64,000 bases of DNA, taken from Planctomycetota bacterium. GTDB lineage: Bacteria; Planctomycetota; B15-G4; JADJEK01. The position numbers and the translations under genes were made by a program. The number at the start of each line of letters is the position of its first letter. Position 1 is the first letter of the stretch. The stretch covers positions 1 to 64,000 of the forward strand of contig JBGAIQ010000027.1 of assembly GCA_044225365.1 (NCBI GenBank), read 5' to 3'. The notes under the pieces were generated by a model. That model did no database searches and was not told where the DNA came from. It saw only the letters and a list, made by a program, of their open reading frames with translations. Positions 1,143 through 60,763 of the stretch are shown here, piece by piece.

Positions 1143-1366
1143 GAATCAGCACTCCGTCGTGGAGGGAAGGACGTAATGAACTCGCTCATCCTCGTCGAGT
1201 GCAATTAGATATCGATGAGACTCGAACTATTTGCTCGATGATCTATGCGTGAGCGTCTTGCGAACTCGAATGCGGCCGTTCGCGAGGAATGCGCGATCGG
1301 TAATCGCCGCGACGTGAGCGCATCGTGAGGCTTGCGGATTCGCTTCCATTTGCGTACACCGTCGCC

Positions 1367-2437: not shown

Positions 2438-3471
2438 CTCGTCGTAAGGTCTACGTCGTCCACGCGGGCGGAACGATCGGCATGCGCCGCACGGGGAAGG
2501 GCTATGCGGTCGAGCCTGGATATCTCGAGCGCTGGATCGATGCGATGCCGGATCTGCGCAGCGACGAGCTTCCGAGCTGGACGCTCTACGAGATGTCGCC
2601 GCTCCTCGATTCGTCGTGCATGAGCCCGGTGCATTGGGAGAAGATCGCGCGCGACATCGAGGCGCACTACGACGAATACGATGGCTTCGTCGTGCTCCAC
2701 GGCACCGACACCATGGCGTACACCGCGTCGGCGCTGTCCTTCATGCTGCAGGGGCTCGAGAAGCCGATCGTCGTCACCGGGTCGCAGATTCCGCTCTGCG
2801 AAGTTCGCAACGACGCGCGGCGCAATCTCATCACCGCGCTGCTCATCGCGGGATTCGAGGACGTGCCCGAGGTGTGTCTCTACTTCAACGGGCGTCTCCT
2901 GCGCGGCAACCGGGCCGTGAAGGTCAGCGCGGATCGCTTCGAAGCGTTCGACTCTCCGAACTACCCCGCGCTCGGCGAAGCAGGCGTGCGCATCGAGATT
3001 CGGCGCGATCTGCTCCTTCCCAAGGGTCGCGGTCCGCTTCGATTCCACTCGATGATGGGCTCGGGGCGAGTCAAGGTCGGCGCGCTGCGCCTCTTCCCCG
3101 GCATCTCGGCGGAGTTCGTGCGCAACGCCTTGAAGCCGCCGATCGAGGGCCTCGTGCTCGAATGCTACGGTGCGGGCAATGGCCCGGTCACCGACGCGGA
3201 CTTCATCGCGGCACTCGCCGAGGCGAGCGCCCGGGGAGTGGTGATCGTCGACGTCACACAGTGCCTGCGCGGGCGGGTGGATCTCGTCGACTACGAAGCG
3301 GGCTTCGCGCTCGCGCGCGCCGGAGTGGTCTCCGGAGCGGATCTCACCGCGGAGGCGGCACTTGCAAAGCTCTATCATCTACTCGAGCAACGTTTGCCTC
3401 ACGAACGCGTGAAGGAAGCGATGCAGCAGGACCTTTGCGGCGAATCGAGCGTGCGGCCGCGGAAGATCTGA
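2434..3471 (+). CDS. ansA: Type I (cytoplasmic) L-asparaginase
   Basis: GGTIGM, HGTDTMAY, TGSQIP, RGNR, FDSPN motifs; ATGA overlap with metX stop. Confidence 0.92.
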   Translation: MTRRKVYVVHAGGTIGMRRTGKGYAVEPGYLERWIDAMPDLRSDELPSWTLYEMSPLLDSSCMSPVHWEKIARDIEAHYDEYDGFVVLHGTDTMAYTASALSFMLQGLEKPIVVTGSQIPLCEVRNDARRNLITALLIAGFEDVPEVCLYFNGRLLRGNRAVKVSADRFEAFDSPNYPALGEAGVRIEIRRDLLLPKGRGPLRFHSMMGSGRVKVGALRLFPGISAEFVRNALKPPIEGLVLECYGAGNGPVTDADFIAALAEASARGVVIVDVTQCLRGRVDLVDYEAGFALARAGVVSGADLTAEAALAKLYHLLEQRLPHERVKEAMQQDLCGESSVRPRKI

Positions 3472-3501
3472 ATCGGCATCGCCCCTTCACCGAAGAGTCC
3501 G

Positions 3502-4878
3502 ATGATCTGCCTCACCTTCGACCGCGGAACGCTCGTTCTCACGGGCTTCTCCAAAGAGCACCCGGGACCTGGGCCGCTGGGGATCGGCGGTATCGAGTTC
3601 GATCCGCGCATCAACGCGTATCGGTCGCCGGCGCGGGCGTATCGGGCGATCGTGCTCGAACTACGACGGCAAGGAATCCCCTACGAGGACAAGGCGCGCG
3701 GGTACACCGAGCTGGCCTTGCGCTCCACGCTGGAACGTGAACCGTTCCCGTATCAACGCGAGGCCGTCGATGCGTTGTTCAAGGCGGGGGGCACGGGCGT
3801 CGTCGTGCTGCCGACGGGAGCGGGCAAGACGTACGTCGCGCAGATGGCGATCGAGCGCGCCGCGCGCAGCGCGATCGTGGTGACGCCGACGATCGACCTC
3901 ATGCAGCAGTGGTACGGCGTGCTCTCGACGGCGTTCGATTTCGAAGTCGGACTCGTCGGCGGCGGATATCACGAAGTGAAGCCGATCACGGTGACGACCT
4001 ACGACTCCGCCTACCTCCACATGGAGCGCTTCGGTGATCGCTTCGGATTCGTCGTGTTCGACGAATGCCATCACCTCCCGAGTCCCAGCATTCAGCTCGC
4101 CGCGGAATGTTGTCTCGCTCCGTTCCGGCTCGGTCTCAGCGCGACTCCCGAGCGCGAGGACGGAATGGAGTCGCGGCTCGAACGACTGATCGGCCCGTTC
4201 GTGTATCGCCGCGAGATCAAGGAACTCGCGGGCAACTACCTCGCCGACTACGAGACGGTGCGGCTCACGGTGCGGCTCTCGTCCGAAGAGAAGAAACGCT
4301 ACGACGAGACGCGCGGGATCTATCGCGACTACGTCGCGAGCCAGGGCATCAGCATGGGGTCTCTCAGCGGATTCCAACAGTTCCTACGACTCTCCGCGAC
4401 CGATCCCGAGGGTCGGCGTGCATTCCTCGCGTATCGCGAGCAGAAGGGAATCGCCGAAGGATCGGAAGGCAAACTGCGACTCTTGCGGCGACTTCTCGCG
4501 AGGCATCATGGCGATCGGATGATCGTGTTCACCGCGGACAACCGCACGGTCCACGAGATCTCACGGCGCTTCCTCGTCCCCGTCATCACGCACCAGACGA
4601 AGGTGAAGGAGCGCAAGGAGATCCTCGAGCGGTTCAACGCGGGTTCGTATCCGTTCCTCGCAACCTCGAAGGTGTTGAACGAGGGCGTCGACGTTCCGGC
4701 GGCCGGCGTTGCGGTGATCCTCTCGGGTTCTGGGTCCGTGCGCGAGCACGTCCAGCGCCTCGGCCGCATCCTCCGCCGCGGCGAGAACAAGCGCGCGATG
4801 CTCTACGAGATCGTCGCCGAAGGCACGGCCGAGGAGTTCGTGAGCACGCGGCGGAGGCAGCACGATGCTTACCGCTGA
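3502..4878 (+). CDS. XPB/Rad25 (SSL2)-like SF2 helicase
   Basis: LPTGAGKT, DECHH, SATPERED (RED motif), QRLGRILR. Confidence 0.9.
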   Translation: MICLTFDRGTLVLTGFSKEHPGPGPLGIGGIEFDPRINAYRSPARAYRAIVLELRRQGIPYEDKARGYTELALRSTLEREPFPYQREAVDALFKAGGTGVVVLPTGAGKTYVAQMAIERAARSAIVVTPTIDLMQQWYGVLSTAFDFEVGLVGGGYHEVKPITVTTYDSAYLHMERFGDRFGFVVFDECHHLPSPSIQLAAECCLAPFRLGLSATPEREDGMESRLERLIGPFVYRREIKELAGNYLADYETVRLTVRLSSEEKKRYDETRGIYRDYVASQGISMGSLSGFQQFLRLSATDPEGRRAFLAYREQKGIAEGSEGKLRLLRRLLARHHGDRMIVFTADNRTVHEISRRFLVPVITHQTKVKERKEILERFNAGSYPFLATSKVLNEGVDVPAAGVAVILSGSGSVREHVQRLGRILRRGENKRAMLYEIVAEGTAEEFVSTRRRQHDAYR

Positions 4879-12500: not shown

Positions 12501-12715
12501 GGAGCGCCGGGCTCTGCCCGGCAATGGGGAAGCTGATGACGAAGAGAAGAGCCAGGCTGGAGCCTGGCGGTCCGGCCATGGCTGGCGGTCCGGCCATGCC
12601 TGGCGGTCCGGGGAAGAAGAAGATGCCAGGCTGGAGCCTGGCGGTCCGGGCATGCCTGGCGGTCCGGGCATGCCTGGCGGTCCGGCGATCTTGGACCGCC
12701 GGGCTCTAGCCCGGC
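12501..12715. repeat. REP-like palindrome cluster with 18-bp tandem sub-repeats
   Basis: GGAGCGCCGGGCTCTGCCCGGC at 12501; GCCAGGCTGGAGCCTGGCGGTCC twice; GG(C/G)CATG(C/G)CTGGCGGTCC 18-mers; GGACCGCCGGGCTCTAGCCCGGC at 12693. Confidence 0.85.
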
Positions 12716-12828
12716 TCCTCGGTTTCATCGCCCATCCGATTCGCTTCGCCTTCCTGTTCCTCATCGCCCCCGGATACATTCGCGCCGACTCGAGCAACGT
12801 GGCATCGCTCACCGGAGGGCGCACGCGC

Positions 12829-13140: not shown

Positions 13141-13480
13141 CCGCCGACAGCACATCCCTGCCGTTTCGCGTGCGCGGGGTTCACCTCGGCTCGTAACCCA
13201 GTTCCCACCCGCCCGATTTCGGGGTATCCTAGCGGGGTTCAGGACCCAGATTGCGGGCCCGCCTCGACCGACCGAATCGTTTCATCGATCCTCTCACCTC
13301 CCCGGCGCTTCGCGAAAGCGGCGGCGCGGCGCGGGGGAGATGCGCGCCCGGTCCGCCGGACAGCCGGTCAGGTCGACGACCCCGATGTCTCGATGACCGC
13401 CCATGCACAGGACGTGCTGCACACCGATCCCACCGCTCGGTGCGATTCTCGTCCGCCTCCTCCCGAACGGTGCTTCACCC

Positions 13481-16207
13481 GTGACGCGACTTCGAACGTT
13501 CGCCTACGCCGCAAGCGTCTTCGTCGGCATCCTCGCGAGTCTCGAGGCGACCCCGCCCCTTTCCACCAATCCACCCCCGGGCCCTCCAGCCGCCGTGGGC
13601 TCGACGACGAGCGGTCGCATCCCGACGCCCCTCGTCTCCGCGCAGAGCGACGCCGGTAATGGCGAAGTCTGCGAGGGCGCGACGGTCACCTTCTCTGGCG
13701 CGGTGAGCGGTGCGTTCGGCAATCCGCAGTATCAGTGGTTCCATGACGGCGTGAAGATCCCCGGTGCAACGAGCATGCAATTCGTGCTCGTCGCAGGCCC
13801 GAGCTCGGGCGGTGACTACACTTTCGGAGTGAAGGCCGGCGTCGGCACGAAGCCGACGGCGTACACCCAGTCGGCCGCGGTTCATCTCAGCGTCATCGTT
13901 CTTCCCGCGCAGGTTTCCGTCGCCGCGTCGAATTCGACGCCGAGCACGTGTCTCGGGGTGCAGTTCACGCTCGTGGCGAACATTGCGGTCGGCACGCCGC
14001 CCTTCGATTACCAGTGGCTGAAGAACGGCACGCCGATCGTCGGGGAGACGAACTCGACGATCACGCTGCCCTCGCTCGTGCAAGGCGTCGATGACGGGCT
14101 CTACGACGTCGAAGTTCGAAACGCGTGCAATCAGGCCCCGTCGTTGCCGGTGCTCGCGGCCTTGCCCTACAGCCTCGTCGTCGCCGATCCGCCGCTCAAT
14201 CTCGCGGTGCAGTCGATTCCGGCGAATGGCATCGCGTGCGTCGGAGACACGCTTCACTTCACGTCGTCCGTCGCGGGCACTGCGCCGTTTACGTATCAGT
14301 GGCGCAAGGATGGCGTCGCCATCCAGGGTGCGACGGGTTCGACCTTCGATTTCGCAACGACCTCGGTGAACGATTCGGGCGCGTACGACGTCGTCGTGAC
14401 GAACGGGTGCAACTTCGCGCAGAGCACGCCGATTGCGATCTCGGTCCTCGCGCCGCCCGATATCACGGCGGATCCGGTGACGACCGCGGCGTGCGTGAGC
14501 GGTCTCGGCAGCGCGACGTTCACCGTGGCAGCGAGTGGCAGCGCGCCGTTCACGTATCAATGGCGCAAGGACGGGAACGTCCTGCCCGCCGCAACGAACT
14601 CGAGTCTCACGATCTCGCCGGTCACATCCAATGACGGCGGACTCTACGACTGCGTCGTCTCGAACGCATGCGGCACGGTCACGTCGAACGCGGCGTCGCT
14701 CGCGCTCATCGACTTCCTGCCGGCCGTCCACTACGCGGTCGGGAATGCGCCGAACGACGTCATCGCCGCCGATCTGTCGATCCCTCCCGACGGGCTGCTC
14801 GACCTCGCGACCGCGGACTCGGGCTCCGCGCGCGTGACGATCCGCCGCAACAACGGAGCGGGATCGTTCAACGCGGTGCAGAACGTTTCGCTCTTCAATG
14901 GCGACGTGCCGGCCGCGCTCGCCGCGGGCAACTTCATCGCGGGCGGGCCGACCGACCTCTTCGTCGTGTGCTCCACGCCCGGGCTCATCCGAGTGCTTAA
15001 CGGCGCGACGAACTTCACGCAGAACAAGATCCTGCTGATGCCCAACAACTCGACGAACCCGATCGGGATCGCCGCGGGCAACTTCAATGGGAACGCGATC
15101 ACCGACGTCGTCGTCGCCGTCAGTGGCGATCTCCTCCTCGGGGGCGGATCGGTCGCCGTGAGTCTCGACACCAATCCACTCGTCGCATTGCCCGCGCCGC
15201 AGGGCGGCTTCCAGCGCGTCTTCGCGGTGGCGTGCGGTGACCTCGATCACGACGGCGACGTCGACGTCGTCGCGACCGTGGCGCCGTCGGGCTTCGCGCC
15301 GTCGACGACGGACAATGTGCTGCTGTATGCCAATGCCGGGAACGGCTCGTTCACCTTCGCAGGATCGCTCTCGGTCGACGCGAATCCGCGCGCGGTCCGC
15401 ATCGGCGACGTCAACGGCGACGGTCACAACGAGATCGTGGTGACGATGGAGTCCGGCGTCTTCGCGGCGCCCGGCGGAGTGATCCTCTTCCAGCGCGATT
15501 CGAATCCGGGTCTGTCGCCCTCCAACTACACGCTCGTCGGTCCGTTCACCGCGGGTCAGGTTCCGCACGCGCTCGCGCTCGGCGACCTCGGTGCCGATTC
15601 GCCGATCGGCGGGCCCGTGAAGCAGGATGTCGTCTCGGTCAATTTCGCTTCGAGCGACCTTGGCGTGTTCGCGCAGTTCGGCGCGAGTTCGTTCGTCGGC
15701 GGCACCGCGACGTACGTGGCGCAGGTGAATCCTTCGGTCGCCGCGATCGGTGACTTCGATTCCGATGGTATGCCGGACATCGCGGTGGCGAACCGTTCAT
15801 CGAACACCGTTTCCGTGCTGCGATCGGTGAGCAATGCGAAGTCGCTCGCGTCGAGCCTTCCTTGCGAAGGCGCGCCGTTGCTCGGCGTCGCGTTCGATGG
15901 TGCGCAGCGAGAATTGCTCCGCGTGCGCGCGGTCGCGCCTTCGCCCTCGCGCGCATGGATCGGCATCGGAACCGAATTCGCCGGCCGCGACGCCGTCGGC
16001 GCGGCGGGATGCCCGCTGCTGCTCTCAGGTCTCGTGAGCATCGCACCGGTCGCGCTGGCTCGCGACGGTTCGTTCGAACTCTCCGCCGTCCTCCCCGCGA
16101 ACACGCTGTTCGAGGGTCGCGACTTCTACGTCCAGGCCTTCGTCCACGACGAGGCGACGAATCTCTTCGCAGGCAGCAACGCACTCAGAATCGACATCGG
16201 GCGGTGA
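13481..16207 (+). CDS. Secreted Ig-like + FG-GAP repeat protein
   Basis: Four YQW...G.Y..V Ig repeats, GDLDHDGDVD/GDVNGDG/GDFDSDG FG-GAP loops; start uncertain (13403 or GTG 13481). Confidence 0.85.
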   Translation: MTRLRTFAYAASVFVGILASLEATPPLSTNPPPGPPAAVGSTTSGRIPTPLVSAQSDAGNGEVCEGATVTFSGAVSGAFGNPQYQWFHDGVKIPGATSMQFVLVAGPSSGGDYTFGVKAGVGTKPTAYTQSAAVHLSVIVLPAQVSVAASNSTPSTCLGVQFTLVANIAVGTPPFDYQWLKNGTPIVGETNSTITLPSLVQGVDDGLYDVEVRNACNQAPSLPVLAALPYSLVVADPPLNLAVQSIPANGIACVGDTLHFTSSVAGTAPFTYQWRKDGVAIQGATGSTFDFATTSVNDSGAYDVVVTNGCNFAQSTPIAISVLAPPDITADPVTTAACVSGLGSATFTVAASGSAPFTYQWRKDGNVLPAATNSSLTISPVTSNDGGLYDCVVSNACGTVTSNAASLALIDFLPAVHYAVGNAPNDVIAADLSIPPDGLLDLATADSGSARVTIRRNNGAGSFNAVQNVSLFNGDVPAALAAGNFIAGGPTDLFVVCSTPGLIRVLNGATNFTQNKILLMPNNSTNPIGIAAGNFNGNAITDVVVAVSGDLLLGGGSVAVSLDTNPLVALPAPQGGFQRVFAVACGDLDHDGDVDVVATVAPSGFAPSTTDNVLLYANAGNGSFTFAGSLSVDANPRAVRIGDVNGDGHNEIVVTMESGVFAAPGGVILFQRDSNPGLSPSNYTLVGPFTAGQVPHALALGDLGADSPIGGPVKQDVVSVNFASSDLGVFAQFGASSFVGGTATYVAQVNPSVAAIGDFDSDGMPDIAVANRSSNTVSVLRSVSNAKSLASSLPCEGAPLLGVAFDGAQRELLRVRAVAPSPSRAWIGIGTEFAGRDAVGAAGCPLLLSGLVSIAPVALARDGSFELSAVLPANTLFEGRDFYVQAFVHDEATNLFAGSNALRIDIGR

Positions 16208-16245
16208 ACCGCAATCCCTGCGGAATCACTGGAGGCCTTCGGCAC

Positions 16246-18816
16246 ATGCGCATTCCCACGTTCGCTCTCGCCCTCGCGGGCACGCTCCTCGTCGCTGCGA
16301 CGGCGTACTCGCAGGTTCGAATCATCCCGATCGGCGATTCGATCACCGACGGCAATCAGACGGCGCATACGACCTATCGCTGCAATCTGTGGTCGATGCT
16401 CGAGGCGCAGAACTACAACGTCGACTTCGTCGGCAGTCAAAACGGCGCCTCCGGTCAGCCGGCGGTGTGCAACCTCTCGGTGAATTTCGACGCCGACCAC
16501 GAAGGCCATTCGGGTTGGAAGATCGAGCAGGTGCTCGCCTGGATCTCCGATCCGCAGCACCAAGTGAGCCCGCCCCCGGACGTCGCGCTCATCCACATGG
16601 GCGTCACGAACCTGCTGCAGGATCTCTTCAACGCGATCACGCAGGTCACGGGACAGCCCCCGACGCAGGAGCAGGTCAACGCCGCGATCGGTAATGCGCT
16701 GACGAATCTATCCGCGATGATCGATCAATTGCGTACGCAGAATCCGAACATCACGATCTGCATCGCGCAGATCATCCCGGCGGACGTGTTCTTCGCGGGC
16801 TTCATGATCCCGTTCTCCGCGGTCGAGGTCTACAACGAGCAGATTCCCGTTCTCGCCGCGGCGAAGGACACGGACGCGTCGCGCGTCTTCGTCGTCGATC
16901 AGCACACGGGATACGACCCGGTGTTCGATTCCGTCGACGGCATCCATCCGAATCCCTCGGGCGAGCAGAAGCTCGCGAACGGCTGGTTCCCGCGCCTCAA
17001 GTTCATCCTCGATTCACTGCCCTGTTCCCAGGCGGCCTCGGCGTCCGTTTCGAGCAACATCGCTCCGAGCAATGTCCTGCCCGGCGACACGGTCACGCTG
17101 ACGGCGAGCGTCTCCGGCGGCACGACGCCCAATCTCTATCAATGGCGCCGCAACGGCGCGCCGATCGCGGGCGCGACGAATCCGACGTATACGATCCCGT
17201 CGATCACGATCCTGCAGGAGGGCGTATACGACTGCATCGCGGGCAACCTCTGTACGACGCTCACGAGCAACGGCGTCGCGCTGTTGCCCGGCGAGTTCGC
17301 CGCGCCGAGTCCTTACGCCGCGGGCAGCGGCCCTTCGGACCTCCTCGCTCTCGATCTCGGAGCGAATCCTGACGGGGCAATCGATCTCGTGTCGAGCAAT
17401 TCGGCGAGCGATGATCTGACGATCCGCTGGAACGATGGCAGCGGCCACTTCGCGACGACGACCACGATTCCGCTCGTGCCGGGCGATCAGCCCACGGCAC
17501 TCGCGGCCGCGAACTTCCAATCCGGGAATGGCGCGGAGATCGCCGTCGCGTGCGCGGGGAGCGACCTGGTTCGCGTGCTCGCCGACAACGGCGGCTACGC
17601 GGAGATCGTTTCGATCGCCGCGCCCGGCAGCTCATCGAATCCCGTCAGCCTCGCGTCGGGCGATCTCGACGGGGACGGCATCGCCGACTTGGTCATCGGC
17701 TACGCGGGTCAGCTCTTCTCGGGCGGCGGCAATCTTGCGATCGCGCTCGATCCCAACGTCCCTGGAACGGCGATTTCGCTGCCGCAGCCCGTGGGTGGGT
17801 TCCTCAGCGTGAAGGGCGTCGTCGTTGCGGACCTCGACGCGGATGGCGACCTCGACATCGCCGCCACGATGGCAGGCACGATGCTCTCGGCGTCGCAGAG
17901 CGACAACGTGCTGCTCTACGAGAACACGGGCGGCGGCGCGTTCCAGTTGAACGGCGCGCTCTCTGCGGATCGCAATCCCGGAGCGATCTGCGCGGGCGAT
18001 CTCGATGGCGACGGCCGCAAGGACCTCGCGGTCACCGTCGAGTCGGCGCCGTTCGGCGCGCCCGGCGGCGTGATCGTGTTCCGCCACGACTTGGCCGCGA
18101 GTCTCGCGCCAGTGGCGTTCACGCCGAGTGCGACCTTCAACTCCGGATCGCTCCCGATCGACATCGCTTGCGCCGATCTGCGCGACGACTCCATTCCCGG
18201 ATTCCAGTCGCGTGTCGATGTCGTCACGGCGAACTTCGCATCGGCGAATGTCGGTGTCCTGTATGGCTTCGACGGCGTGAACTTCGCTTCGACCGGCTCC
18301 TGCGCAGGCGGTCTCAATCCGCGCGCGATCGCGATCGCCGACTTCAACAACGATCGCACCGCCGACGTCGTGATCGCGAACGCGACTTCCAACGATCTCA
18401 CGGTCTCGCTCGCACTGCCGCGCGCGCTCGCGCAGAAGTTCGGCGCGGGTTGTTCGGGAACGGCGGGAACGCCTGCGATCCAGAGCGTCTCGACGCCGAG
18501 CTACGGCAGCACGACGTTCAGCGTCAATCTCACGAACGCGCGGCCATTCGCGCCGACGCTGCTCGGCGTGTCGCTGCAGTACACGAACATCGATCTCGGC
18601 GGCTGCACGCTGCTGATCTCGATGCCGTTCGTGCTCATCCCGATGTACGCGAGCGGCACGGGCACGGCGCAGTTCCCGGTCGGGATCCCGAACGAGGTCA
18701 CTCCGTTCCAGGGTCTCAACGCGTACTTCCAGTACTTCGTCTACGACCCCGCGGGCGGCTACCAATCGCAGATCGCGTTCAGCGACGGACTGCGCATCAA
18801 GTTCGGGAACCCGTGA
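16246..18816 (+). CDS. Secreted SGNH esterase + Ig + FG-GAP repeat protein
   Basis: Signal peptide; GDSITDG, HEGHSGW, DGIHPN; FG-GAP loops; GGAGG RBS at 16231. Confidence 0.85.
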   Translation: MRIPTFALALAGTLLVAATAYSQVRIIPIGDSITDGNQTAHTTYRCNLWSMLEAQNYNVDFVGSQNGASGQPAVCNLSVNFDADHEGHSGWKIEQVLAWISDPQHQVSPPPDVALIHMGVTNLLQDLFNAITQVTGQPPTQEQVNAAIGNALTNLSAMIDQLRTQNPNITICIAQIIPADVFFAGFMIPFSAVEVYNEQIPVLAAAKDTDASRVFVVDQHTGYDPVFDSVDGIHPNPSGEQKLANGWFPRLKFILDSLPCSQAASASVSSNIAPSNVLPGDTVTLTASVSGGTTPNLYQWRRNGAPIAGATNPTYTIPSITILQEGVYDCIAGNLCTTLTSNGVALLPGEFAAPSPYAAGSGPSDLLALDLGANPDGAIDLVSSNSASDDLTIRWNDGSGHFATTTTIPLVPGDQPTALAAANFQSGNGAEIAVACAGSDLVRVLADNGGYAEIVSIAAPGSSSNPVSLASGDLDGDGIADLVIGYAGQLFSGGGNLAIALDPNVPGTAISLPQPVGGFLSVKGVVVADLDADGDLDIAATMAGTMLSASQSDNVLLYENTGGGAFQLNGALSADRNPGAICAGDLDGDGRKDLAVTVESAPFGAPGGVIVFRHDLAASLAPVAFTPSATFNSGSLPIDIACADLRDDSIPGFQSRVDVVTANFASANVGVLYGFDGVNFASTGSCAGGLNPRAIAIADFNNDRTADVVIANATSNDLTVSLALPRALAQKFGAGCSGTAGTPAIQSVSTPSYGSTTFSVNLTNARPFAPTLLGVSLQYTNIDLGGCTLLISMPFVLIPMYASGTGTAQFPVGIPNEVTPFQGLNAYFQYFVYDPAGGYQSQIAFSDGLRIKFGNP

Positions 18817-20940: not shown

Positions 20941-21546
20941 ATGGCGGTACTTTGTGCAGAACACGGTCTCTTGTTCATCGGGAGCAAGAGAACGGCATCG
21001 ACGGCCGTTGGGAATGCACTCGTCGAGCAGCTTCGCGGGGTCTACGTTCCGCGAGTCAGGATCGAACTCCGGCCATCGGGAAACATATCGAAACGACACT
21101 CCACGATCGCCCAGATCGAACACTATGGGCTGATCCAAGTGGAGCTCGATTCGCTCCTGAAGGTCACGACGGTTCGAAATCCGTTCGACTCGCTCGTCTC
21201 GCTATGGGCGAAGGAGCGGTTCCGGGAGAACCGTACGCAGTCGTTCACCCAATTGAAGAGGGTCGATTTCAGCGAGTGGATGTGGAAGAAATTCAACCAC
21301 CGCGAAGTGATCTCGATGAATCGAGACTTCGTTCAAGGCGTCGATTCGATCTTGCGCTTCGAATCGCTGCAGGACGATCTGAACGGGCTTCTTCGTTCAA
21401 GAGGCATCCCGCCGGTCGTTCTGCCCGTCGTGAATCGGACGTCCGAGCGAGATCGAGATTATCGCAAGTACTACGATGATCGCGCGAGAGAGGTCGTGGA
21501 AAGAGTGTTTGCTCCCGATATCGAGAACTTCGATTACACATTCTGA
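20941..21546 (+). CDS. Sulfotransferase family 2-like protein
   Basis: LFIGSKRTAST (5'-PSB-like), VRNPFDSLVS (3'-PB), RFESLQDD, YRKYYD...DIENFDYTF. Confidence 0.75.
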   Translation: MAVLCAEHGLLFIGSKRTASTAVGNALVEQLRGVYVPRVRIELRPSGNISKRHSTIAQIEHYGLIQVELDSLLKVTTVRNPFDSLVSLWAKERFRENRTQSFTQLKRVDFSEWMWKKFNHREVISMNRDFVQGVDSILRFESLQDDLNGLLRSRGIPPVVLPVVNRTSERDRDYRKYYDDRAREVVERVFAPDIENFDYTF

Positions 21547-21625
21547 CTCGGCGGCTCGAATCGGTATCCATGGAAGTGCAGACTCGCGCCGAGGATTCGA
21601 TGGCACCAGCGATGAATGGACGAAC

Positions 21626-23191
21626 ATGACGGCTCGAAGGTCGGGTGCGCCGCGCGAACGCCGAACTCGTCAGTTCGTCCGAGCGGCGATCGTCGGCGTC
21701 CTGTCCGGAGCAGTCGCCGTGGCGTTCCACCTCGCACTCGAATACTGTGAGGAATCGAGGCGATGGCTCCTCGACACGCTGGGCCGACGATCAACCACGT
21801 TGTCCGTGCTCATTCCCGTCATCGTCTTCTCCACGATCGGTGCGTTCGTCGGATGGATGACCGAGAGATTCGCGCCAGAGGCTGCCGGCAGCGGCATTCC
21901 CCACTTGAAGGGCGTGTTGCTTCACCTTCGAGCCATGAATTGGCGAAGGGTCCTTCCTGTGAAGTTCTTTGGGGGTGCGCTCGGAATCGGGGCAGGACTA
22001 TCCCTCGGGCGCGAAGGACCCACGGTGCAGTTGGGAGCCGCGGTTGGAGCGTTCGTCGGCGAGGTGCTCCGAGTTCCCGATCGATCGCGCAACTCCCTCA
22101 TCTCCTGCGGCGCCGGGGCCGGCTTGGCCGCGGCATTCAACGCCCCTCTCGCCGGATTCCTCTTCGTCATCGAGGAGTTGCATCGCGAACTGTCCGCGAT
22201 GACGTTCGGAGGCGCGTTCGTGGCCTCGGTTTCGGCCGACATCCTCGTCAAGCTCGTGGGTCGGGATCGCTCGGCATTCGCGATCCATCACGAAGCGGGC
22301 ATGCCGGCGTCTCTGCTTCCGTTGCTGATCGTGCTCGGAGCGACTTGCGGCGTCCTCGGCGTAGTCTTCAACAAGGGTCTCCTGTTCTGCTCTCAGCGCC
22401 TCCGAGATCTGATACCTGTCTCACGCACGGTCTCGGTCGCTTCCGCTGCAGGGATCGCGGGCCTCGTGGCGTGGACCGTGCCCGATGCGCTCGGCAGCGG
22501 CCAACTCGCGGCGGCCTCGATCCTCGACGGGTCCCTCGATCGGTCGACTCTCGCTCTCCTCGTTCTGCTCGTCGCGAAGTTCGGGCTCACACTGCTCAGC
22601 TACGGATCCGGAGCTCCTGGAGGAATTTTCGCTCCGATGCTGCTGCTCGGCGCCACGGTGGGAGGAATCCTCTCGAATCTCGCAGGCGCGCTGTTCCCGA
22701 TTCCCGATTCGAGTGGATCGGCCTTCGCGGTACTCGGGATGGCGGCGTTCTTCTGTGCGTCGGTGCGAGCGCCGCTCACGGGAATCGTGTTGATCGTCGA
22801 GATGACCGGCAACTACGAGCACCTGCTCGACATCTGCGTCGCTTGCCTTTCTGCTTACCTCGTTGCTGAAGCGCTCTACGACACGCCGATCTACGACGCA
22901 TTGCTCCATTCGGATCTCCGGCGACAAGGACTTCTTCCACGCGAGCTGGATGGCGTCGAACCCCGTTCGCTCGTGTTCGTCGTCGAGCCCGGCGCACCGA
23001 TCGATCAGTCGCTGCTGATGGACGCAGGAATTCCGTCCGGCTGCCTGATCGTCGGCATCGAGCGGAGTGGACGCGAGATCATGCCGCGACCGAAACTGAA
23101 GCTGCTCGCAGGCGATCAGCTGACGGTTCTGCTGGATCCTGGCGAAGAACGAGTGCTGAGGCTCCGGGAGTTGACGCGGGCGTCGGGCTGA
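21626..23191 (+). CDS. clcA: ClC H+/Cl- exchange transporter with C-terminal TrkA-C (RCK_C) domain
   Basis: GSGIP, GREGP (gating Glu), GIFAP, IY motifs; GCLIVGIERSGREIMP...GD. Confidence 0.9.
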   Translation: MTARRSGAPRERRTRQFVRAAIVGVLSGAVAVAFHLALEYCEESRRWLLDTLGRRSTTLSVLIPVIVFSTIGAFVGWMTERFAPEAAGSGIPHLKGVLLHLRAMNWRRVLPVKFFGGALGIGAGLSLGREGPTVQLGAAVGAFVGEVLRVPDRSRNSLISCGAGAGLAAAFNAPLAGFLFVIEELHRELSAMTFGGAFVASVSADILVKLVGRDRSAFAIHHEAGMPASLLPLLIVLGATCGVLGVVFNKGLLFCSQRLRDLIPVSRTVSVASAAGIAGLVAWTVPDALGSGQLAAASILDGSLDRSTLALLVLLVAKFGLTLLSYGSGAPGGIFAPMLLLGATVGGILSNLAGALFPIPDSSGSAFAVLGMAAFFCASVRAPLTGIVLIVEMTGNYEHLLDICVACLSAYLVAEALYDTPIYDALLHSDLRRQGLLPRELDGVEPRSLVFVVEPGAPIDQSLLMDAGIPSGCLIVGIERSGREIMPRPKLKLLAGDQLTVLLDPGEERVLRLRELTRASG

Positions 23192-23295
23192 ACGTGCACG
23201 CGATCACCGCAACCGGCGCCGAATCTGCTTCCCCGATTTCACGTCGATCTTGTAGCCTCGGCGAGTTCCTCGACGGAATCCTCCTCGACGGAACC

Positions 23296-23353
23296 CAAGG
23301 GTGCAGAGTCATTGGGACTCCAGCAGGCTGCGAGATGGTCGGGCCGCCATCTC
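23296..23353 (+). ncRNA. nhaA-I-like (Li+/Na+) riboswitch candidate, copy 1
   Basis: CAAGGGTGC-A-GAGTC/GACTC-CA-GCAGG...GAGATGG-TCGGGCCG-CCATCTC; same architecture as copy at 28397. Confidence 0.75.
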
Positions 23354-23439
23354 AATTCCATGGCAACCCGTTTCAGGCGATCGTGCGCGATCACGATCGT
23401 CCACTCGAATTCGGGAGGCTGTGAACGGAACTGCCTGCC

Positions 23440-25659
23440 ATGCGTCGGTCGACACAGAGATATCTCGCTCTCCTCCTGCTCGGCCTCGCCGTCGCACTGT
23501 GGGTCGCTTCGAAGATCGTGACGGTCACGACTTGGCAGTGGTTCGAAAGGGACTTGGCGTTACGAGCCGAGCTCGCGGCCAATGGAGCGCGACAGACTCT
23601 CGCCGAGAGGATCGGCGCGAACGACGACACCGGCGCGATACGAGTGCTCGAAGACATTACTCGCGATGAGCGAATCATCGCCGCGGCACTGCTCAGTCCA
23701 GGCGGCGAACTCTTCGCAGTCACTCCCGATTACCCTCCGACACTGCGCGGCGAGGATCTGGGCCTCGATCTTCATCCCGACGTCACTTCGAACGCGCGGG
23801 GTGAACTCGGCACTCGCGCGATCGAGATCAGCGGTGTCCCGATCGACGTCAAGGGCGCCACCTATCATGTCGTATTGCTCCACGACCTCAGCTTCGTCGA
23901 GCGACGCCAAAAAACCGTGGATCGCTTTCTTTGGGTTGGGTTCCTCGCGCTCTTGATCTGCGGTGCGCTCTCGCTGTTCGTGGGGACGCGACTCTCATGG
24001 GGTGAATGGACTGCACGTTTGCGCCGATTCGTCCGGGGCGAGACGCGCGAAGCTCTATTCCAACCTCTCGTCGGCGAGATTCGGGACCTCAGCCGTCGTA
24101 TCCAGGATCAACGAGGTGGTGCAACGGGGAATCCATGGACACCGGCGCGCCTCAAGCAGTTCCTCCGTACCGAACTCATGGGCGAGCGAGTCATCATGCT
24201 CGCGAATCGCGAACCGTACATACACGTCAAGGACAAGGAAGGAAACGTCCGCGTCATGCATCCCGCGAGCGGCCTCGTCACCGCGATGCAGCCGGTCATG
24301 CGAGCATGCTCCGGAGTGTGGGTCGCACATGGAAGCGGCACCGCGGACCGCGAAGTCGTCGACGCGAAGGATCACGTCGGCGTTCCACCCGAATCACCGC
24401 AATATACGTTGAGGCGCGTGTGGTTGTCGCCGGCCGAAGAGCAGGGGTATTACTACGGATTCGCGAACGAAGGGCTCTGGCCGCTGTGCCATCTGGCGCA
24501 TGTGAGGCCGGAGTTTCGCAGATCGGATTGGGATCAGTACCGTGCCGTGAATCAGCGCTTTGCCGACGCAGTCTGTGAAGAAGCGGATGTCGACGATCCC
24601 ATCGTTCTGGTCCAGGACTACCACTTCGCGCTCGCCCCTCGAATGATCCGCGAGCGACTTCCCCGCGCGAGTATCATCACGTTCTGGCACATCCCGTGGC
24701 CAAACGCGGAGCGGATCGGCGTCTGCCCCTGGGCGAACGAGATCCTGGACGGCTTACTCGGAAGTTCCATCCTGGGCTTTCACACCCAACTTCACTGCAA
24801 CAACTTTCTCGACGCCGTCGACCGGCTACTGGAATCGAGGATCGACCGTGAAGTGCACGGAGTCCAGGTACAGGGACGCGTTTGCCTCGTTCGACCGTAT
24901 CCGATATCCATCGAGTGGCCGCTCCGATGGCCAGCGGAGTCACCGCCACCGACCAAGTGTCGACAAGTGGTGTTCGATGAACTGGGACTTGCTAAGGATG
25001 CGATCCTAGGCGTCGGAGTTGATCGTCTTGATTATACAAAAGGCATTCTCGAGCGATTCCGCGCGGTCGAGCTCGCATTGCAGCGAGACCCCGAGCTCGC
25101 GAGACGCCTGACTTTCGCACAGCTATCGGCGCCTTCGCGTTCCGCGATCGAGAAGTACCGAGATTTCGATCAACAAGTCATCGACGAGGCGGCACGGATC
25201 AACCGTCAGTTCCAGCGAGCGGATGGTGGTCCGATCCGCTTGCTTCGAGCACACCATGAACCGCCCCGTGTCCTTGCTTTCTATCGTGCGGCCGATTTCT
25301 GCATGGTCACGAGTCTCCACGACGGGATGAACCTGGTGGCCAAGGAATTCGTCGCGGCGCGGGAGGATGAGCGCGGAGTGCTCATCTTGAGCAAGTTCAC
25401 AGGGGCCGCCAAGGAGCTGAGCGAAGCGCTCGTCGTGAATCCTTACGATCTGGAACACTGCGCTGCGGCGATTGCTTTTTCCGCCGCGATGCCGATCCAC
25501 GAGCAAACTGCGAGAATGCGAGCGATGAGATCGGTAGTCGCCGAATTCAATGTCTACGCATGGGCCGGTCGAATGCTCGCAGATGCTGCGCGACTTCGCT
25601 GGCACGAGCGATTGATTGGACAGCTCAGTCGGTTTCCGGACTCGTTGGGGACATCATGA
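23440..25659 (+). CDS. otsA: Trehalose-6-phosphate synthase (GT20) with N-terminal TM-periplasmic-TM extension
   Basis: [50 protein letters not shown]. Confidence 0.92.
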
Positions 25660-28208
25660 ACCCATCATCGCGACTCGATCAACGGCTTCGCGAGATCTCG
25701 ACCGCGCCGGTACTGCTCGTCGCCACCGATTTCGACGGGACTGTTGCCCCCATAGTGCCCCGGTACGAGGATGCGACAGCGGATCGGGACGCGATCGTCG
25801 CGCTGCGAATGCTCTCGCAATTGCCGCATACCTTCGTTGCGGTCATCTCGGGACGTTCCCTCGATGACCTTTCGAAACGCATGGACGGAGCGTCGGACTT
25901 CCATCTCATCGGCAGTCATGGAAGCGAGTTCGAATCGGGCTTCGCCGAGCGACTGACCGAAGCGGATCTCCACCTTCTCGAAGCGATCCGAATCGAGCTC
26001 GAACCGATCGTGGCGCGCTTTCCGGGTTCGCGTATCGAGCTGAAACCCGGTGCGCTCGCATTTCACTTCCGTGAACTCTCGGATGAGGAAGGCGCGCAGG
26101 CGGAGCAAGCTGTCATGCTGGGACCGGGTCGCCGTCACGGCGTACAGGTGCGCCAGGGAAAGAAGGTGGTCGAATTCTCTGTCGTTCCGGCGAACAAGGG
26201 ACTGGCTTTGGATCGGATTCGCCAGCGCGTTGGGGCCACGGTCGTGGTCTACCTCGGTGATGACGTCACCGATGAAGACGCGTTTGCCGCACTGAGTGGG
26301 CCCGATCTCGGATTGAAGATCGGCAGTGGAGGTACGAGTGCCAAGTACCGAGTGCCGGAGCGGTCGGACGTTTCTCGCCTTCTCGCGCGACTTGCCGAAG
26401 CCCGAGCCGAGTGGCTGGCCGGTCGAGATGCCGAACCGATCGAATCGCATGCGATGCTCTCGGACCAACGCTCGATCGCGCTCTTGACGCAGAGCGGCAG
26501 GATCTCATGGTTCTGCTCGCCGCGCATCGACTCGTCGGCGCTGTTCGCAGAACTGGTTGGTGGCCCTCCCGCCGGATTCTTCGAGATTCGCGAGGAGGGC
26601 TCGTCGCGACCGATTCGACAACGCAATGACGGCGACACCTTCACCGTGATCACGGAATGGCCCAATCTGCGGGTCATCGATTATCTCGATGCTGCGAATG
26701 GGCGCGCTTTCCAGCGTGCGGGTCGGACGGATCTCGTTCGGGTCGTGGAGGGGGCGGGACGTGCTGCGGTCACCTTTGGTCCACGACTCGATTTTGGTCG
26801 AATTCCGACGCGACTGTCGAAGGCCGACGGAGGACTGGTGGTCGAGGGGGCGCGTGAGCCCATCGTGCTCTACACCCCCGGTGTCGAGTTCGAGATCGTC
26901 CAAGACGGAGCGCATCAGACAGCGTATGCGACCCTCGAGGCCACGGGCCGGCCAATCGAATTCGAACTTCGTTGCGGCACTCGCAGTCTCGCACCGACGA
27001 TGAAGTCGGAGCGCATTCGACGCGACTCCAATCAGCGGTTCTGGAGCAGTTTTGCATCGACTCTGGTCTTGCCGACTCGATTCGCCCAGCCCGTGAAGAG
27101 GAGTGCGCTCATCCTGAAAGCACTCACGTACGGACCCACCGGCGCAATCGCGGCAGCGGCGACGACGAGCCTTCCCGAGTGCCGTGGCGGCGTTAGGAAT
27201 TGGGATTATCGATTCTGTTGGCCACGAGACGCTGCGATCGCGTCTCAGGCGCTTGCCCTCATCGGTGCGATAGGAATCGGCTCGAAATTCCTCGATTGGC
27301 TGATCGAAACACTCGAGCGAACGTCCTCCGAGCCAGGTTCGATCGATCTTCCCGCACCGGCGTATTCGGTGACCGGAGCGCACCTCTCGCCCGAGGCCGA
27401 ACTCACTCATCTCGCGGGCTATGCGGGCAGTCGACCCGTGCGCCTCAGCAATGCCGCCTCCCAACAGATTCAGCTCGATGTTTTGGGCCCAGTGGTGGCC
27501 CTGGTCGCCGAACTCGCGAAACACGGCGCTCCGATTTCGGTGGATCATTTCCGGCTCGTGGAACTCGCCGTCGAATCCGTTCGCGCTCGGTGGATGGAGC
27601 CAGACCATGGGATCTGGGAGATCCGCCTGCCGAAGCGCCATCATGTTCATTCGCGCGTCTCGTGCTGGCTCGCCGTCGATCGCGCCCTCGTCGTGGCGCA
27701 CTATTTAGGGGTGACACGCGACGGGTGGGTCGAACTCGCGAACGAGATCAAGAACGATATTCTCGATCGCGGATTCCATCGGTCGGTGAATGCATTCGGT
27801 ACGAGTTATGAAGACCCGGCGGCGGATGCTGCCGCCTTGATCACAGGCCTATCAGGAATGATCGCTCCGGATGATCCACGCTTCATTGGAACTGTAGATT
27901 GGGTGGAGAGGAACCTAAAGCAAGGCTCGGCGGTGTACCGTTATCGATTCGACGACGGGCTCCCTGGAAGAGAGGGAGCCTTCAATATAGCAACGACGTG
28001 GTTCATCGAGTCGCTCGCCCTTCTCGGTCGCTACGATGAAGCTGAGAGTCTGTTCGCTGATTACCTTCGACTCGCCGGCCCGACCGGCCTCATCGCCGAG
28101 GAGTTCGATCCGGAGACGAAGGCGGCCCTGGGAAACGTGCCGCAGGCGTACTCGCATGCCGGTCTCATCTTCGTCGCTCACCGACTGTCGACGCGGGCCG
28201 AACATTGA
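25656..28208 (+). CDS. otsB: Trehalose-6-phosphate phosphatase fused to GH15 (trehalase/glucoamylase-like) domain
   Basis: HAD DFDGT, SGR, NKG, GDDVTDEDAF; GH15 RNWDYRFCWPRD, DHGIWEIR, EEFD..LGNVPQAYSH; ATGA overlap with otsA. Confidence 0.9.
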   Translation: MNPSSRLDQRLREISTAPVLLVATDFDGTVAPIVPRYEDATADRDAIVALRMLSQLPHTFVAVISGRSLDDLSKRMDGASDFHLIGSHGSEFESGFAERLTEADLHLLEAIRIELEPIVARFPGSRIELKPGALAFHFRELSDEEGAQAEQAVMLGPGRRHGVQVRQGKKVVEFSVVPANKGLALDRIRQRVGATVVVYLGDDVTDEDAFAALSGPDLGLKIGSGGTSAKYRVPERSDVSRLLARLAEARAEWLAGRDAEPIESHAMLSDQRSIALLTQSGRISWFCSPRIDSSALFAELVGGPPAGFFEIREEGSSRPIRQRNDGDTFTVITEWPNLRVIDYLDAANGRAFQRAGRTDLVRVVEGAGRAAVTFGPRLDFGRIPTRLSKADGGLVVEGAREPIVLYTPGVEFEIVQDGAHQTAYATLEATGRPIEFELRCGTRSLAPTMKSERIRRDSNQRFWSSFASTLVLPTRFAQPVKRSALILKALTYGPTGAIAAAATTSLPECRGGVRNWDYRFCWPRDAAIASQALALIGAIGIGSKFLDWLIETLERTSSEPGSIDLPAPAYSVTGAHLSPEAELTHLAGYAGSRPVRLSNAASQQIQLDVLGPVVALVAELAKHGAPISVDHFRLVELAVESVRARWMEPDHGIWEIRLPKRHHVHSRVSCWLAVDRALVVAHYLGVTRDGWVELANEIKNDILDRGFHRSVNAFGTSYEDPAADAAALITGLSGMIAPDDPRFIGTVDWVERNLKQGSAVYRYRFDDGLPGREGAFNIATTWFIESLALLGRYDEAESLFADYLRLAGPTGLIAEEFDPETKAALGNVPQAYSHAGLIFVAHRLSTRAEH

Positions 28209-28396
28209 TTCGATCGTCGACGGCGGACGGCGGCGAGCGCTACAGGTCGTCACGATGCTCGATCGCTCAGGGCCTGCGGTCGAGAGGACCACGGTTTTCT
28301 TCGAAATCGACTGCGGTCCAAGTGCGGACCCGCTAGTCTACCGGTTCGTTGAATGGTTCGGCTTTGCCGAAGCCTTCGACGCGCTGCGAAGCGGCG

Positions 28397-28456
28397 CAAG
28401 GGTGCCGAGCCCATTCGGGGCTCGAGCAGGCAACGTGGATGGTCGGGCCGCCATCC
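28397..28456 (+). ncRNA. nhaA-I-like (Li+/Na+) riboswitch candidate, copy 2
   Basis: CAAGGGTGC-C-GAGCCC/GGGCTC-GA-GCAGG...GGATGG-TCGGGCCG-CCATCC; upstream of NhaD-like gene. Confidence 0.78.
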
Positions 28457-28475
28457 CAAAAGGCGTTGCTCTTTC

Positions 28476-28826
28476 GTGACGACTACCAAGAACTCCGGAT
28501 CGCCCTCGGGCGACCCGAGGGCCCTTATCAATACACCCAGCGGTTGCTTGCTCCACGTGTTCTCACAGTTCGGTGGCGCCATGCTCATATTGTGCGTTGC
28601 GCTGCTGATTCTTCGCCGGCCGCCGTGGGTCTTTTCCGTTCTCGACATCGTGTATCTCGTTGCGGTCATGGCGCTCGTGGCCGTGCAGCGCTTCGATTAC
28701 GCTAGTTCGCCCATCGAATCGGAGGGGCGTGTGATCGACGCGCGATCGCCCACGCTCCGCCGTGCAATGAAGACCGTTGGGCTCACCGCGGTGCTCTGGG
28801 CGGCAGTCAACTCGTTTCAGATTTGA
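28476..28826 (+). CDS. Small hypothetical membrane protein (about 3 TM)
   Basis: Three hydrophobic segments; GTG 28476 lies just after the riboswitch candidate; start uncertain. Confidence 0.55.
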   Translation: MTTTKNSGSPSGDPRALINTPSGCLLHVFSQFGGAMLILCVALLILRRPPWVFSVLDIVYLVAVMALVAVQRFDYASSPIESEGRVIDARSPTLRRAMKTVGLTAVLWAAVNSFQI

Positions 28827-28961
28827 ATGCGGATCGCGAGGCCGTGAGCTCCTGATCGAAGAGACGACGCGACCGGCAAAGCGTCGTCGCTTCGTTCGGT
28901 GCAACGGATCGCGGTTTCGCGATCGATGAATCCCACCTGCTTTCGGCTCGGAGCGCCAACC

Positions 28962-30101
28962 TTGCCTGTCGAATTCGTGATCTTCGGTCTCACACTTCTC
29001 GGCGTCGCGATTTTTCATAACAAGACTCTATGGGTCGCGCTCGCCGGTCTACTCTCGTTGCTCACATACAAACTCGGATTCACCGATTTCCCGGTCGCGC
29101 ATCACCTTCATGAAGAACTTCCTCTCCTACTGAATCTGTTCGGCCTGCTCGTTGGATTCACGGTACTCGCTGGACACTTCGAACGATCGGGAGTGCCCGA
29201 GTGGCTGCCGCGTCTATTGCCGAACGATTGGAAGGGAGGATTCGTACTACTCGTGATCGTGTTCGGCCTGTCGGCGGTGCTGGACAACATCGCCGCGGCG
29301 TTGATCGGAGCAACGATTGCTCGCACCGTCTTCTGTGACCGGCTTCATATCGGGTATCTCGCCGCCATCGTCGCCTCGTCGAATGCGGGAGGAGCACCCT
29401 CCGTCGTCGGAGACACCACGACGACGATGATCTGGCTCGCCGGCGTGGAGCCGCTCCGGGTCCTTCCCGCGCTCATTGCGTCGATCGCCGCGTTCCTTTT
29501 CTTCGGAATCATCGGTTCCGTTCAACAGGATCGATATCAGCGCATTACACGAGACGAACGCATTCCGGTTCGGATCGATCGGGGGGCGCTTGCCACCGTC
29601 CTCCTCATCCTTGCGGGAGCGGTGGCGGCAAACGTGTATCTGGGGCACCGACCGGCCGTGGGTGTGTGGGCGGCGATCCTCGTCGCGGCGCCGTTTCGGA
29701 AGCCGCATTGGCGGGCAATCCCCAAGGCCGCCGTGAGCGCGTCGTTCCTCGTTGCGCTGGTCTTCACGGCTTCGATGATGCCGGTCGACCGCCTTCCATC
29801 CCCCTCGTGGGGTTCCGTGTTCGGACTTGGAGTCGTTTCGGCCGTCTTCGACAACATCCCGCTGACGAAACTCGCGATCGACCAGAACGGCTATGACTGG
29901 GCCCTGCTCGCCTACGCGGTCGGCTTCGGCGGCTCCCTCATCTGGTTCGGGTCGTCGGCGGGAGTCGCCGTTTCGAGCGTCTGCTCGAACGCGAAGTCAG
30001 TGGCAGCTTGGGTGCGGCACGGCTGGCCGGTTTGGATCGCCTACTCGATCGGTTTCTTCGCGCTTCTTTGGATTCGAGGATGGAATCCGATCCACCTTTG
30101 A
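28962..30101 (+). CDS. IT-superfamily (NhaD/CitM-like) ion transporter
   Basis: LSAVLDNIAA, SNAGGAPSVVGDTTT, SAVFDNIPLT, GGSLIWFGSSAGVA; GGAG before TTG 28962. Confidence 0.85.
   Translation: MPVEFVIFGLTLLGVAIFHNKTLWVALAGLLSLLTYKLGFTDFPVAHHLHEELPLLLNLFGLLVGFTVLAGHFERSGVPEWLPRLLPNDWKGGFVLLVIVFGLSAVLDNIAAALIGATIARTVFCDRLHIGYLAAIVASSNAGGAPSVVGDTTTTMIWLAGVEPLRVLPALIASIAAFLFFGIIGSVQQDRYQRITRDERIPVRIDRGALATVLLILAGAVAANVYLGHRPAVGVWAAILVAAPFRKPHWRAIPKAAVSASFLVALVFTASMMPVDRLPSPSWGSVFGLGVVSAVFDNIPLTKLAIDQNGYDWALLAYAVGFGGSLIWFGSSAGVAVSSVCSNAKSVAAWVRHGWPVWIAYSIGFFALLWIRGWNPIHL

Positions 30102-60674: not shown

Positions 60675-60763
<89 letters not shown>

Follow-up and report, generated by a model that had tools for sequence, protein, structure and literature searches.

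Two nhaA-I class aptamers in a trehalose gene cluster of a planctomycete: candidate RNA sensors of a monovalent cation

The window analysed here is a stretch of 64,000 nucleotides of a Planctomycetota bacterium (GenBank assembly GCA_044225365.1, contig JBGAIQ010000027.1, positions 1 to 64,000 of the forward strand). Among 120 listed relatives of the PriA encoded in the window, the best that bear an organism name are ten proteins from Planctomycetota/Planctomycetes MAGs and one from Pseudohongiellaceae, the nearest of them with 61% identity. The plus strand of the window harbours a cluster that encodes ClcA, OtsA, an OtsB-GH15 fusion and an NhaD-like protein, an order of genes that fits salt stress. 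The upstream neighbour in this context (21476..23191, +) codes for an H+/Cl- exchanger of the ClcA type with TrkA_C as its C-terminal domain, and is recognised by Pfam (Voltage_CLC, E 1.1e-100) as well as by NCBIfam (NF003640, 428 bits vs a cut-off of 350). It is followed by an intergenic region of 248 nt, whose codon-position composition is not gene-like and which holds the first of two structured RNA elements, hereafter termed copy 1, on the sense strand and 87 nt 5' of the ATG of otsA. The latter gene (23440..25659, +) encodes a trehalose-6-phosphate (T6P) synthase of 739 amino acids with a GT20 domain at residues 250-716 (Pfam Glyco_transf_20, E 7.7e-109); the NCBIfam OtsA models match at E 1e-117 to 1e-133, below their equivalog cut-offs, and the start codon is backed by a homologous N-terminus in an Anaeromyxobacter MAG (locus L047).

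Directly adjoining is otsB, fused to a GH15 trehalase-like domain (25656..28208, +; Trehalose_PPase, TREH_N and Glyco_hydro_15). The T6P phosphatase model TIGR00685 (T6PP) is matched with 116.6 bits vs a cut-off of 68, and an archaeal TreH1-like model at E 1.1e-91, below its cut-off. The likely start of the fusion, ATG 25656, overlaps the stop codon of otsA (ATGA), and the frame bears the HAD DxDGT motif. Because of this overlap, otsA and the otsB fusion almost certainly form one operon, and the first-pass annotation, which had placed a trehalose operon downstream of the structured RNA, was thus right about the genes according to both Pfam and NCBIfam. Since T6P phosphatase, TREH_N and GH15 lie in one frame, a single protein unites an enzyme of trehalose synthesis with one that may hydrolyse trehalose or a glucan.

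In addition, OtsA carries an N-terminal extension of about 250 amino acids (window 23440-24190), in which hydropathy reveals hydrophobic segments at residues ~8-30 and ~160-187. The layout of the extension, a domain of about 130 amino acids flanked by these two segments, appears like that of a membrane sensor. The extension matches no Pfam family up to E 10, nor did any relative with a solved structure emerge. It is common to 14 other protein clusters, all of them GT20 proteins of 732-763 amino acids, among which are one assigned by name to a Planctomycetes MAG and another to Candidatus Binatia, and it is also present in the OtsA of the Anaeromyxobacter MAG.

The second RNA element, copy 2, is located 5.1 kb downstream of copy 1 in the same cluster, where it is again intergenic and in sense orientation, 192 nt 3' of the otsB stop codon and 124 nt 5' of the ATG of a small open reading frame (ORF). 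As the plus strand has no terminator-like site between otsB and copy 2, read-through from the trehalose operon into copy 2 is possible. The first frame after copy 2 is a putative, hydrophobic orphan ORF of 81 residues (28581..28826, +), called from its composition; its GC content by codon position (0.63/0.44/0.74) resembles that of the neighbouring genes. It belongs to no Pfam or NCBIfam family and has no relatives in the sampled aptamer loci described below, and a search against representatives of 1.84 billion clusters at 50% identity (one for each, closer relatives being merged) returned its own representative and three repetitive matches only. Further downstream follows a polytopic membrane protein of 400 amino acids (28899..30101, +), which is distantly NhaD-like: TIGR00775 (E 1.8e-19) and NF038006 (E 3.1e-15) both match below cut-off and with partial coverage, while Pfam gave no match and no solved-structure relative emerged at E<=0.01. 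The protein is 52% identical to a frame 3' of an nhaA-I aptamer in another sampled genome (L024), where the aptamer is followed by a GNAT gene and then by the NhaD-like frame.

Elsewhere in the window, two large adjoining genes at 13403-18816 encode FG-GAP/Ig-repeat proteins, one of them with a GDSL lipase domain, and many other long ORFs are devoid of a Pfam family. Two microRNA-precursor models match on opposite strands at 12614-12725, with 31 and 25 bits vs a cut-off of 90; this is probably nothing, and the segment contains no inverted repeat of 14 or more bases.

The identity of the two RNA elements was addressed by a cmscan search of the whole window against 4227 Rfam families. Both matched the nhaA-I (Li+-I class) model RF03057, copy 1 at 23299..23352 (+) with 47.3 bits (E 3.1e-6) and copy 2 at 28400..28456 (+) with 52.4 bits (E 1.8e-7), the gathering score of the family being 37 bits, and both matches span model positions 1-55 of 55. 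The class that the first-pass annotation had named, nhaA-I or Li+-type, is hence the one recovered at both sites. The two further models it had put forward, nhaA-II and DUF1646, gave no match anywhere in the window at E<=1 under permissive filters, nor did any other riboswitch family reach E<=1 at either aptamer site in the Rfam scans. The sole other above-cut-off match to the 4227 families is a tRNA, namely a tRNA-Leu with anticodon GAG and a long variable arm at 60675-60763 (+).

Copy 1 comprises the structured elements that had been claimed 5' of otsA. Read from 23296, it opens with CAA, followed by GGGTGC from 23299 on. Helix P1 (23303-23324) is formed by GAGTC (23306-23310) pairing with GACTC (23316-23320) and by the closing pairs G23303-C23324 and C23304-G23323, which are set apart by a small internal loop (A23305 / C23321 A23322) that appears in the cmscan output as two non-standard positions. 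The junction 3' of P1 reads GCAGG plus CTGC, and P2 is composed of AGATGGT (23333-23339) and GCCATCT (23346-23352) around the loop CGGGCC, with G23332-C23353 as an additional pair. In copy 2, whose blocks begin at 28397, the core is the same as in copy 1, while P1 (28404-28427) is built from GAGCCC/GGGCTC and P2 from GGATGGT (28437-28443) and GCCATCC (28450-28456). In either copy, P2 consists of 7 standard pairs; P1 has 7 pairs in copy 1 and 8 in copy 2, whereas GGGUGC at the 5' end, GCAGG in the junction and GGUCGGGCCGCC at the tip of P2 are unchanged in both. A recent duplication of a larger segment was considered as the origin of the pair and rejected, because the flanks of the copies are unrelated and their likeness is confined to the aptamer.

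The recurrence of the element near 28397 with re-paired stems, as described in the first-pass annotation, is thus real. The covariation it had read from the two copies amounts to a single double (compensatory) change per helix, which is thin when taken alone as support; across the family, covariation is evident. As one change per helix is too little, a genome collection was scanned with a core pattern in which the conserved unpaired core and five pairs were fixed and Y was allowed at the loop U. The scan yielded at least 119 loci, which are to be regarded as a sample rather than a census, and which split into 34 matches with C at this loop position (C-type), seven U-type matches without a closed P1 and 78 aptamer-like U-type matches. 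The seven with unclosed P1 (L005, L010, L014, L027, L090, L091 and L098) were dropped before any counts were made, and the 78 aptamers from other genomes, among the matches listed, were aligned together with the two window copies.

In the resulting alignment of 80 aptamers, 81.9% of the pairing cells hold a pair vs 67.4% in shuffles, and the covariation score amounts to 0.349 vs 0.124 in shuffles, a value reached by none of 500 shuffles; with slid partners as a control, the score stayed at or below 0.146. Changes on both sides occur in 10 of the 15 pairs, the remaining five being those fixed by the pattern. Moreover, the outer four pairs of P2, which the pattern does not demand, are complete in 69 of the 80 U-type aptamers and present as three of four in the other 11, in a count that tolerates the bulge of one base by which the beta/gamma-proteobacterial form is characterised. 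Among the matches listed, all four of these pairs occur in none of the 34 of C type. The gathering score of Rfam was accordingly passed by 15 of 15 U-type loci that were submitted and by none of the three C-type loci. Taken together with the matches in the window, this identifies both window elements as genuine nhaA-I aptamers, an assignment made from sequence and covariation.

The C-type loop, GGCCGGG, had been entertained as a mark of the published Na+-II variants. As all 34 such matches are without P1 and P2 and the three tested failed Rfam, they were ascribed to chance and used as a negative control. Two sub-forms of the aptamer were also noticed in the alignment. The dinucleotide AA just before GGGUGC (columns 2-3) is shared by the two window copies, and it recurs in 15 of 22 loci whose downstream frame has no family or is cut, in three of six solute-synthesis loci and in five of 37 NhaA-type loci; the one-base bulge in P2 (columns 54-58) occurs in all 10 members linked to PF07399, which are of the beta/gamma-proteobacterial form. 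Both sub-forms probably reflect phylogeny rather than function.

With respect to gene content, the longest ORF starting within 450 nt 3' of each aptamer was taken as the downstream gene, which gave 72 ORFs for the 78 loci, six loci being too short. This rule may select an incorrect frame, L047 being an instance, and other rows without a family may hide similar cases. Among the matches listed, 43 of the 72 downstream ORFs encode cation antiporters, in line with the literature: 27 belong to NhaA (PF06965), 10 to a second NhaA-type family (PF07399), three to Na_H_Exchanger, two to the Mrp type and one to NhaD (CitMHS in Pfam, NhaD in NCBIfam). No family was assigned to 17 of the 72, the wrong-frame ORF of L047 included. 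Rfam-passing aptamers were also found in genomes of Planctomycetota, Verrucomicrobiia and Lentisphaeraceae and in those of Acidobacteriota and Myxococcota type.

A link to trehalose was encountered at two of the sampled loci among the matches listed. In the Anaeromyxobacter MAG (L047), the aptamer lies 58 nt 5' of an OtsA with 50.8% identity to that of the window over residues 24-423, the extension being part of the match. In a Kofleriaceae MAG (L044), the aptamer at 993-1043 (+) precedes a T6PP-GT20 fusion by 24 nt; this locus also holds a second, divergent nhaA-I aptamer about 100 nt away (841-890, -), and the gene it serves has no family. A further arrangement was observed in a Vicinamibacteraceae MAG (L013), where an aptamer (848-897, -) is situated after an otsA-containing frame and before nhaA. 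This frame (988-3747, -) spans 919 amino acids with a Na_H_Exchanger domain at 46-390 and a GT20 OtsA domain at 433-900, and may represent either a genuine fusion or a pair of genes that no stop codon separates.

Other routes of solute synthesis recur in the sample as well. In L070 (4694-7881), the aptamer is followed by an SPS-like GT4 gene and then by a sucrose-6F-phosphatase, and in L119 (2326-3340) it stands 5' of a gene of the mannosyl-3-phosphoglycerate-phosphatase family. The links to trehalose, sucrose- and mannosylglycerate-type pathways support the view that part of the class serves in osmotic stress. In L066 (1-3760, -), the aptamer heads a putative operon of DapB, a ClC-CBS channel and an inositol-monophosphatase-family gene, while MscL (L086), TrkA (L053) and an amino-acid permease (L057) are further targets in the sample. 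DapB-ClC, MscL and TrkA, like the solute-synthesis genes of L070 and L119, count among osmotic-stress genes.

The expression platform of the two copies was sought by several approaches. On the plus strand of 23000-29100, neither terminator-like sites nor a sigma-70-like site were found, and the hairpins 3' of both aptamers are without a U tract. A looser terminator scan of the leaders of the 80 aptamers gave 21 matches, mostly deep in coding regions, and was judged uninformative. The segment 28495-28526 after copy 2 is GC-rich and palindromic, so that two overlapping hairpins are possible; it is terminator-like on the minus strand only, where there is no plausible gene. For copy 1, the fold of the leader has a z-score of -1.19, and the pairings that could join the aptamer to the start region are at the level of chance, as they were equalled by 61, 172 and 273 of 500 shuffles. 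Constrained folding left the otsA start codon paired with or without the aptamer being locked. A thermodynamic switch for copy 1 was thereby rejected, since locking of the aptamer lowers the mean unpaired probability of the otsA start region from 0.50 to 0.39 instead of freeing it.

For copy 2, an 11-nt stretch at 28543..28553 (+) is complementary to 28424-28434, that is, to the junction and the beginning of the linker. The corresponding duplex of -19.9 kcal/mol was reached by four of 500 shuffles and is part of the minimum-free-energy fold; the stretch overlaps an in-frame TTG at 28548, and constrained folding with a locked aptamer sets it free. It may thus act as a regulatory partner of the copy 2 junction. 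In many of the sampled leaders, inspected by eye, the 3' arm of P2 and the bases next to it are complementary to a purine-rich stretch before the start codon, which fits the gating of ribosome access that has been published for most nhaA-I members (PMC9646797). Because no platform above chance was found for copy 1 and copy 2 has one candidate, we infer the step that leads from ion binding to expression in both cases from related RNAs.

The nhaA-I RNAs have been characterised as Li+-triggered ON switches, some variants of which answer to Na+ (White et al. 2022, PMC9646797). The nhaA leader of Azorhizobium caulinodans, the one member of consensus type that was tested in vivo, is induced by 50 mM Li+ and neither by 50 mM Na+ nor by K+, and the validated consensus-type representatives are Li+-selective. 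The window copies resemble this leader in covariance-model family, core and two-helix architecture, and probably in their position in a 5' leader. With regard to the typical target, a cation/proton antiporter, the likeness may extend to copy 2, which precedes the small ORF and then an antiporter-like gene, whereas copy 1 differs in preceding otsA. The spacers differ too: many sampled nhaA leaders have 10-30 nt to the start codon, in contrast to 87 and 124 nt in the window. Furthermore, the hosts named in the text of the paper are confined to Alpha-, Beta-, Gamma- and Deltaproteobacteria (PMC9646797), while the host of the window is a planctomycete.

The Na+-II variants, as found in Desulfobulbus propionicus, are rare members from Deltaproteobacteria with a terminator platform that overlaps the aptamer and with downstream genes of unknown function; at position 54 of the D. 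propionicus construct they carry C where U is usual, and their specificity became broader upon a single C-to-U change (PMC9646797). Their overall motif is that of the window copies, and the Na+ response proposed below would make the copies act alike. On the other hand, a terminator platform is absent at the window copies on the plus strand of 23000-29100, and if position 54 equals the U of GGUCGGG, both window copies have U. The Na+-I riboswitch (DUF1646 motif), an ON switch for a monovalent cation that controls transporters and genes related to osmoprotectants (dapB, ablA, eam; White et al. 2022, PMC9337991), has a similar two-helix layout, yet belongs to a different family, which is the one that left no match in the window.

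White et al. (2022, PMC9646797) already mention, in their Concluding remarks, that Li+-I riboswitches are occasionally associated with T6P synthase, and copy 1 is an instance of this pairing. The window differs from these cases in the membrane-anchored N-terminal extension of its OtsA and in the presence of a second aptamer 5.1 kb downstream. White et al. offered two readings of the T6P link, either a response to Li+, which was noted to alter trehalose metabolism in some eukaryotes, or Na+-sensing variants engaged in osmotic stress; in addition, the affinity of Li+-I aptamers for Na+ is weak, and their silence is owed in part to the low Na+ level of cells that are not under osmotic stress (PMC9646797). 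The available part of the earlier paper on the discovery of nhaA-I does not mention trehalose, and no later paper testing the association of nhaA-I with trehalose was found in the literature from 2022 on.

Against this background, it seems reasonable by analogy that a monovalent-cation RNA sensor would control compatible-solute synthesis. Specifically, the reading considered rather probable is that both copies are cis-acting ON switches, copy 1 for otsA-otsB/GH15 and copy 2 for the NhaD-like antiporter, with salt stress as the most likely trigger, i.e., Na+, Li+ being probably accepted as well. A small alkali cation that rises in the cytoplasm would cause the core (GGGUGC, GCAGG and the GGUCGGGCCGCC loop) to fold around the ion, and the ion-bound leader would, by analogy with the validated members, relay the signal to transcription or translation and increase downstream expression. 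Copy 1 would thus raise otsA-otsB/GH15 and thereby trehalose synthesis, whereas copy 2 would act in the same way on the small membrane ORF and the NhaD-like antiporter. Under Na+ salt stress, and probably also upon exposure to Li+, cation extrusion and compatible-solute synthesis would be switched on together.

The ion itself is the point at which the most serious alternative departs from this proposal. Both copies may be strictly Li+-selective Li+-I riboswitches, such that trehalose and the antiporter-like gene constitute a defence against lithium toxicity rather than a salt or osmotic response; this is a tenable but less probable explanation. The aptamers are indeed consensus-type at every core position fixed by the pattern and by the Rfam model, and neither the terminator platform nor the deltaproteobacterial host nor the downstream genes of unknown function published for Na+-II were encountered, both of which observations speak against Na+. 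The putative operon in L066 ends in a gene of the inositol monophosphatase family, the classical Li+-inhibited enzymes. Furthermore, the Li+ selectivity of the validated consensus-type representatives and the Li+ response proposed by White et al. with reference to trehalose metabolism in eukaryotes (PMC9646797) are in accord with a lithium defence. Nevertheless, lithium is environmentally rare, and the setting of ClcA, trehalose and NhaD-like genes, together with the links to solute synthesis, MscL and TrkA, reads more naturally as an NaCl or osmotic regulon. Moreover, since a single base change broadened the ion specificity of a published variant (PMC9646797), the overall consensus cannot tell which ion is bound.

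We therefore lean towards Na+ or dual sensing rather than strict Li+ selectivity, given the NaCl-stress cluster and the repeated links in the sample to compatible-solute genes, MscL and TrkA, which as genomic context would point in this direction. The weak affinity of Li+-I aptamers for Na+ would suit a high-threshold salt alarm. A more far-reaching version, put forward tentatively, holds that in this planctomycete consensus nhaA-I aptamers may be internal Na+ sensors instead of lithium alarms, heading a small regulon of trehalose synthesis and Na+ extrusion, in which the membrane-anchored and putatively outward-facing N-terminal domain of OtsA could provide a second layer of sensing.

A second alternative to the ON-switch reading assumes that aptamer folding and perhaps ion binding persist while control of otsA has been lost, so that copy 1 would be a relic, a stable 5' fragment or a processing site. 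The expression platform of copy 1 is not above chance and the z-score of its leader fold is only modest, in keeping with such a loss; however, its full-length match is intact at every conserved position, where decay would be expected of a relic, and a distant genome (L047) keeps the aptamer directly 5' of an orthologue-like otsA, which together render a defunct element improbable. Finally, chance resemblance in GC-rich DNA is effectively refuted by the Rfam scores and the C-type control: although the 34 C-type matches, among the matches listed, illustrate that parts of the motif arise by chance in GC-rich genomes, these are without helices and fail Rfam, whereas the window holds two complete, intergenic and sense matches with E-values obtained for the whole window against all families.

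As to novelty, which the first-pass annotation had overrated, both the nhaA-I class and its occasional link to T6P synthase are already in print (PMC9646797), and hence the find in the window is in itself unsurprising. What may be new, on a modest scale, is the planctomycete host, the occurrence of two separate aptamers in one salt-stress cluster and an OtsA with a membrane-anchored extension, although Supplementary Table I of White et al. may already list such cases. Among the sampled genomes, copies of the motif that score above the Rfam cut-off occur in Planctomycetota, Verrucomicrobiota, Lentisphaerota, Acidobacteriota and Myxococcota. The locus is, moreover, a clean test case for the question left by the discoverers, namely whether trehalose-associated members sense Li+ or Na+, because the two aptamers have identical cores, one 5' of a transporter-like gene and one 5' of a solute-synthesis operon, and so permit a side-by-side comparison. 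If Na+ sensing by such consensus aptamers held true, an inorganic ion would gate compatible-solute synthesis directly through RNA in phyla other than the Proteobacteria, and ion specificity in the nhaA-I class would not be readable from the conserved core.
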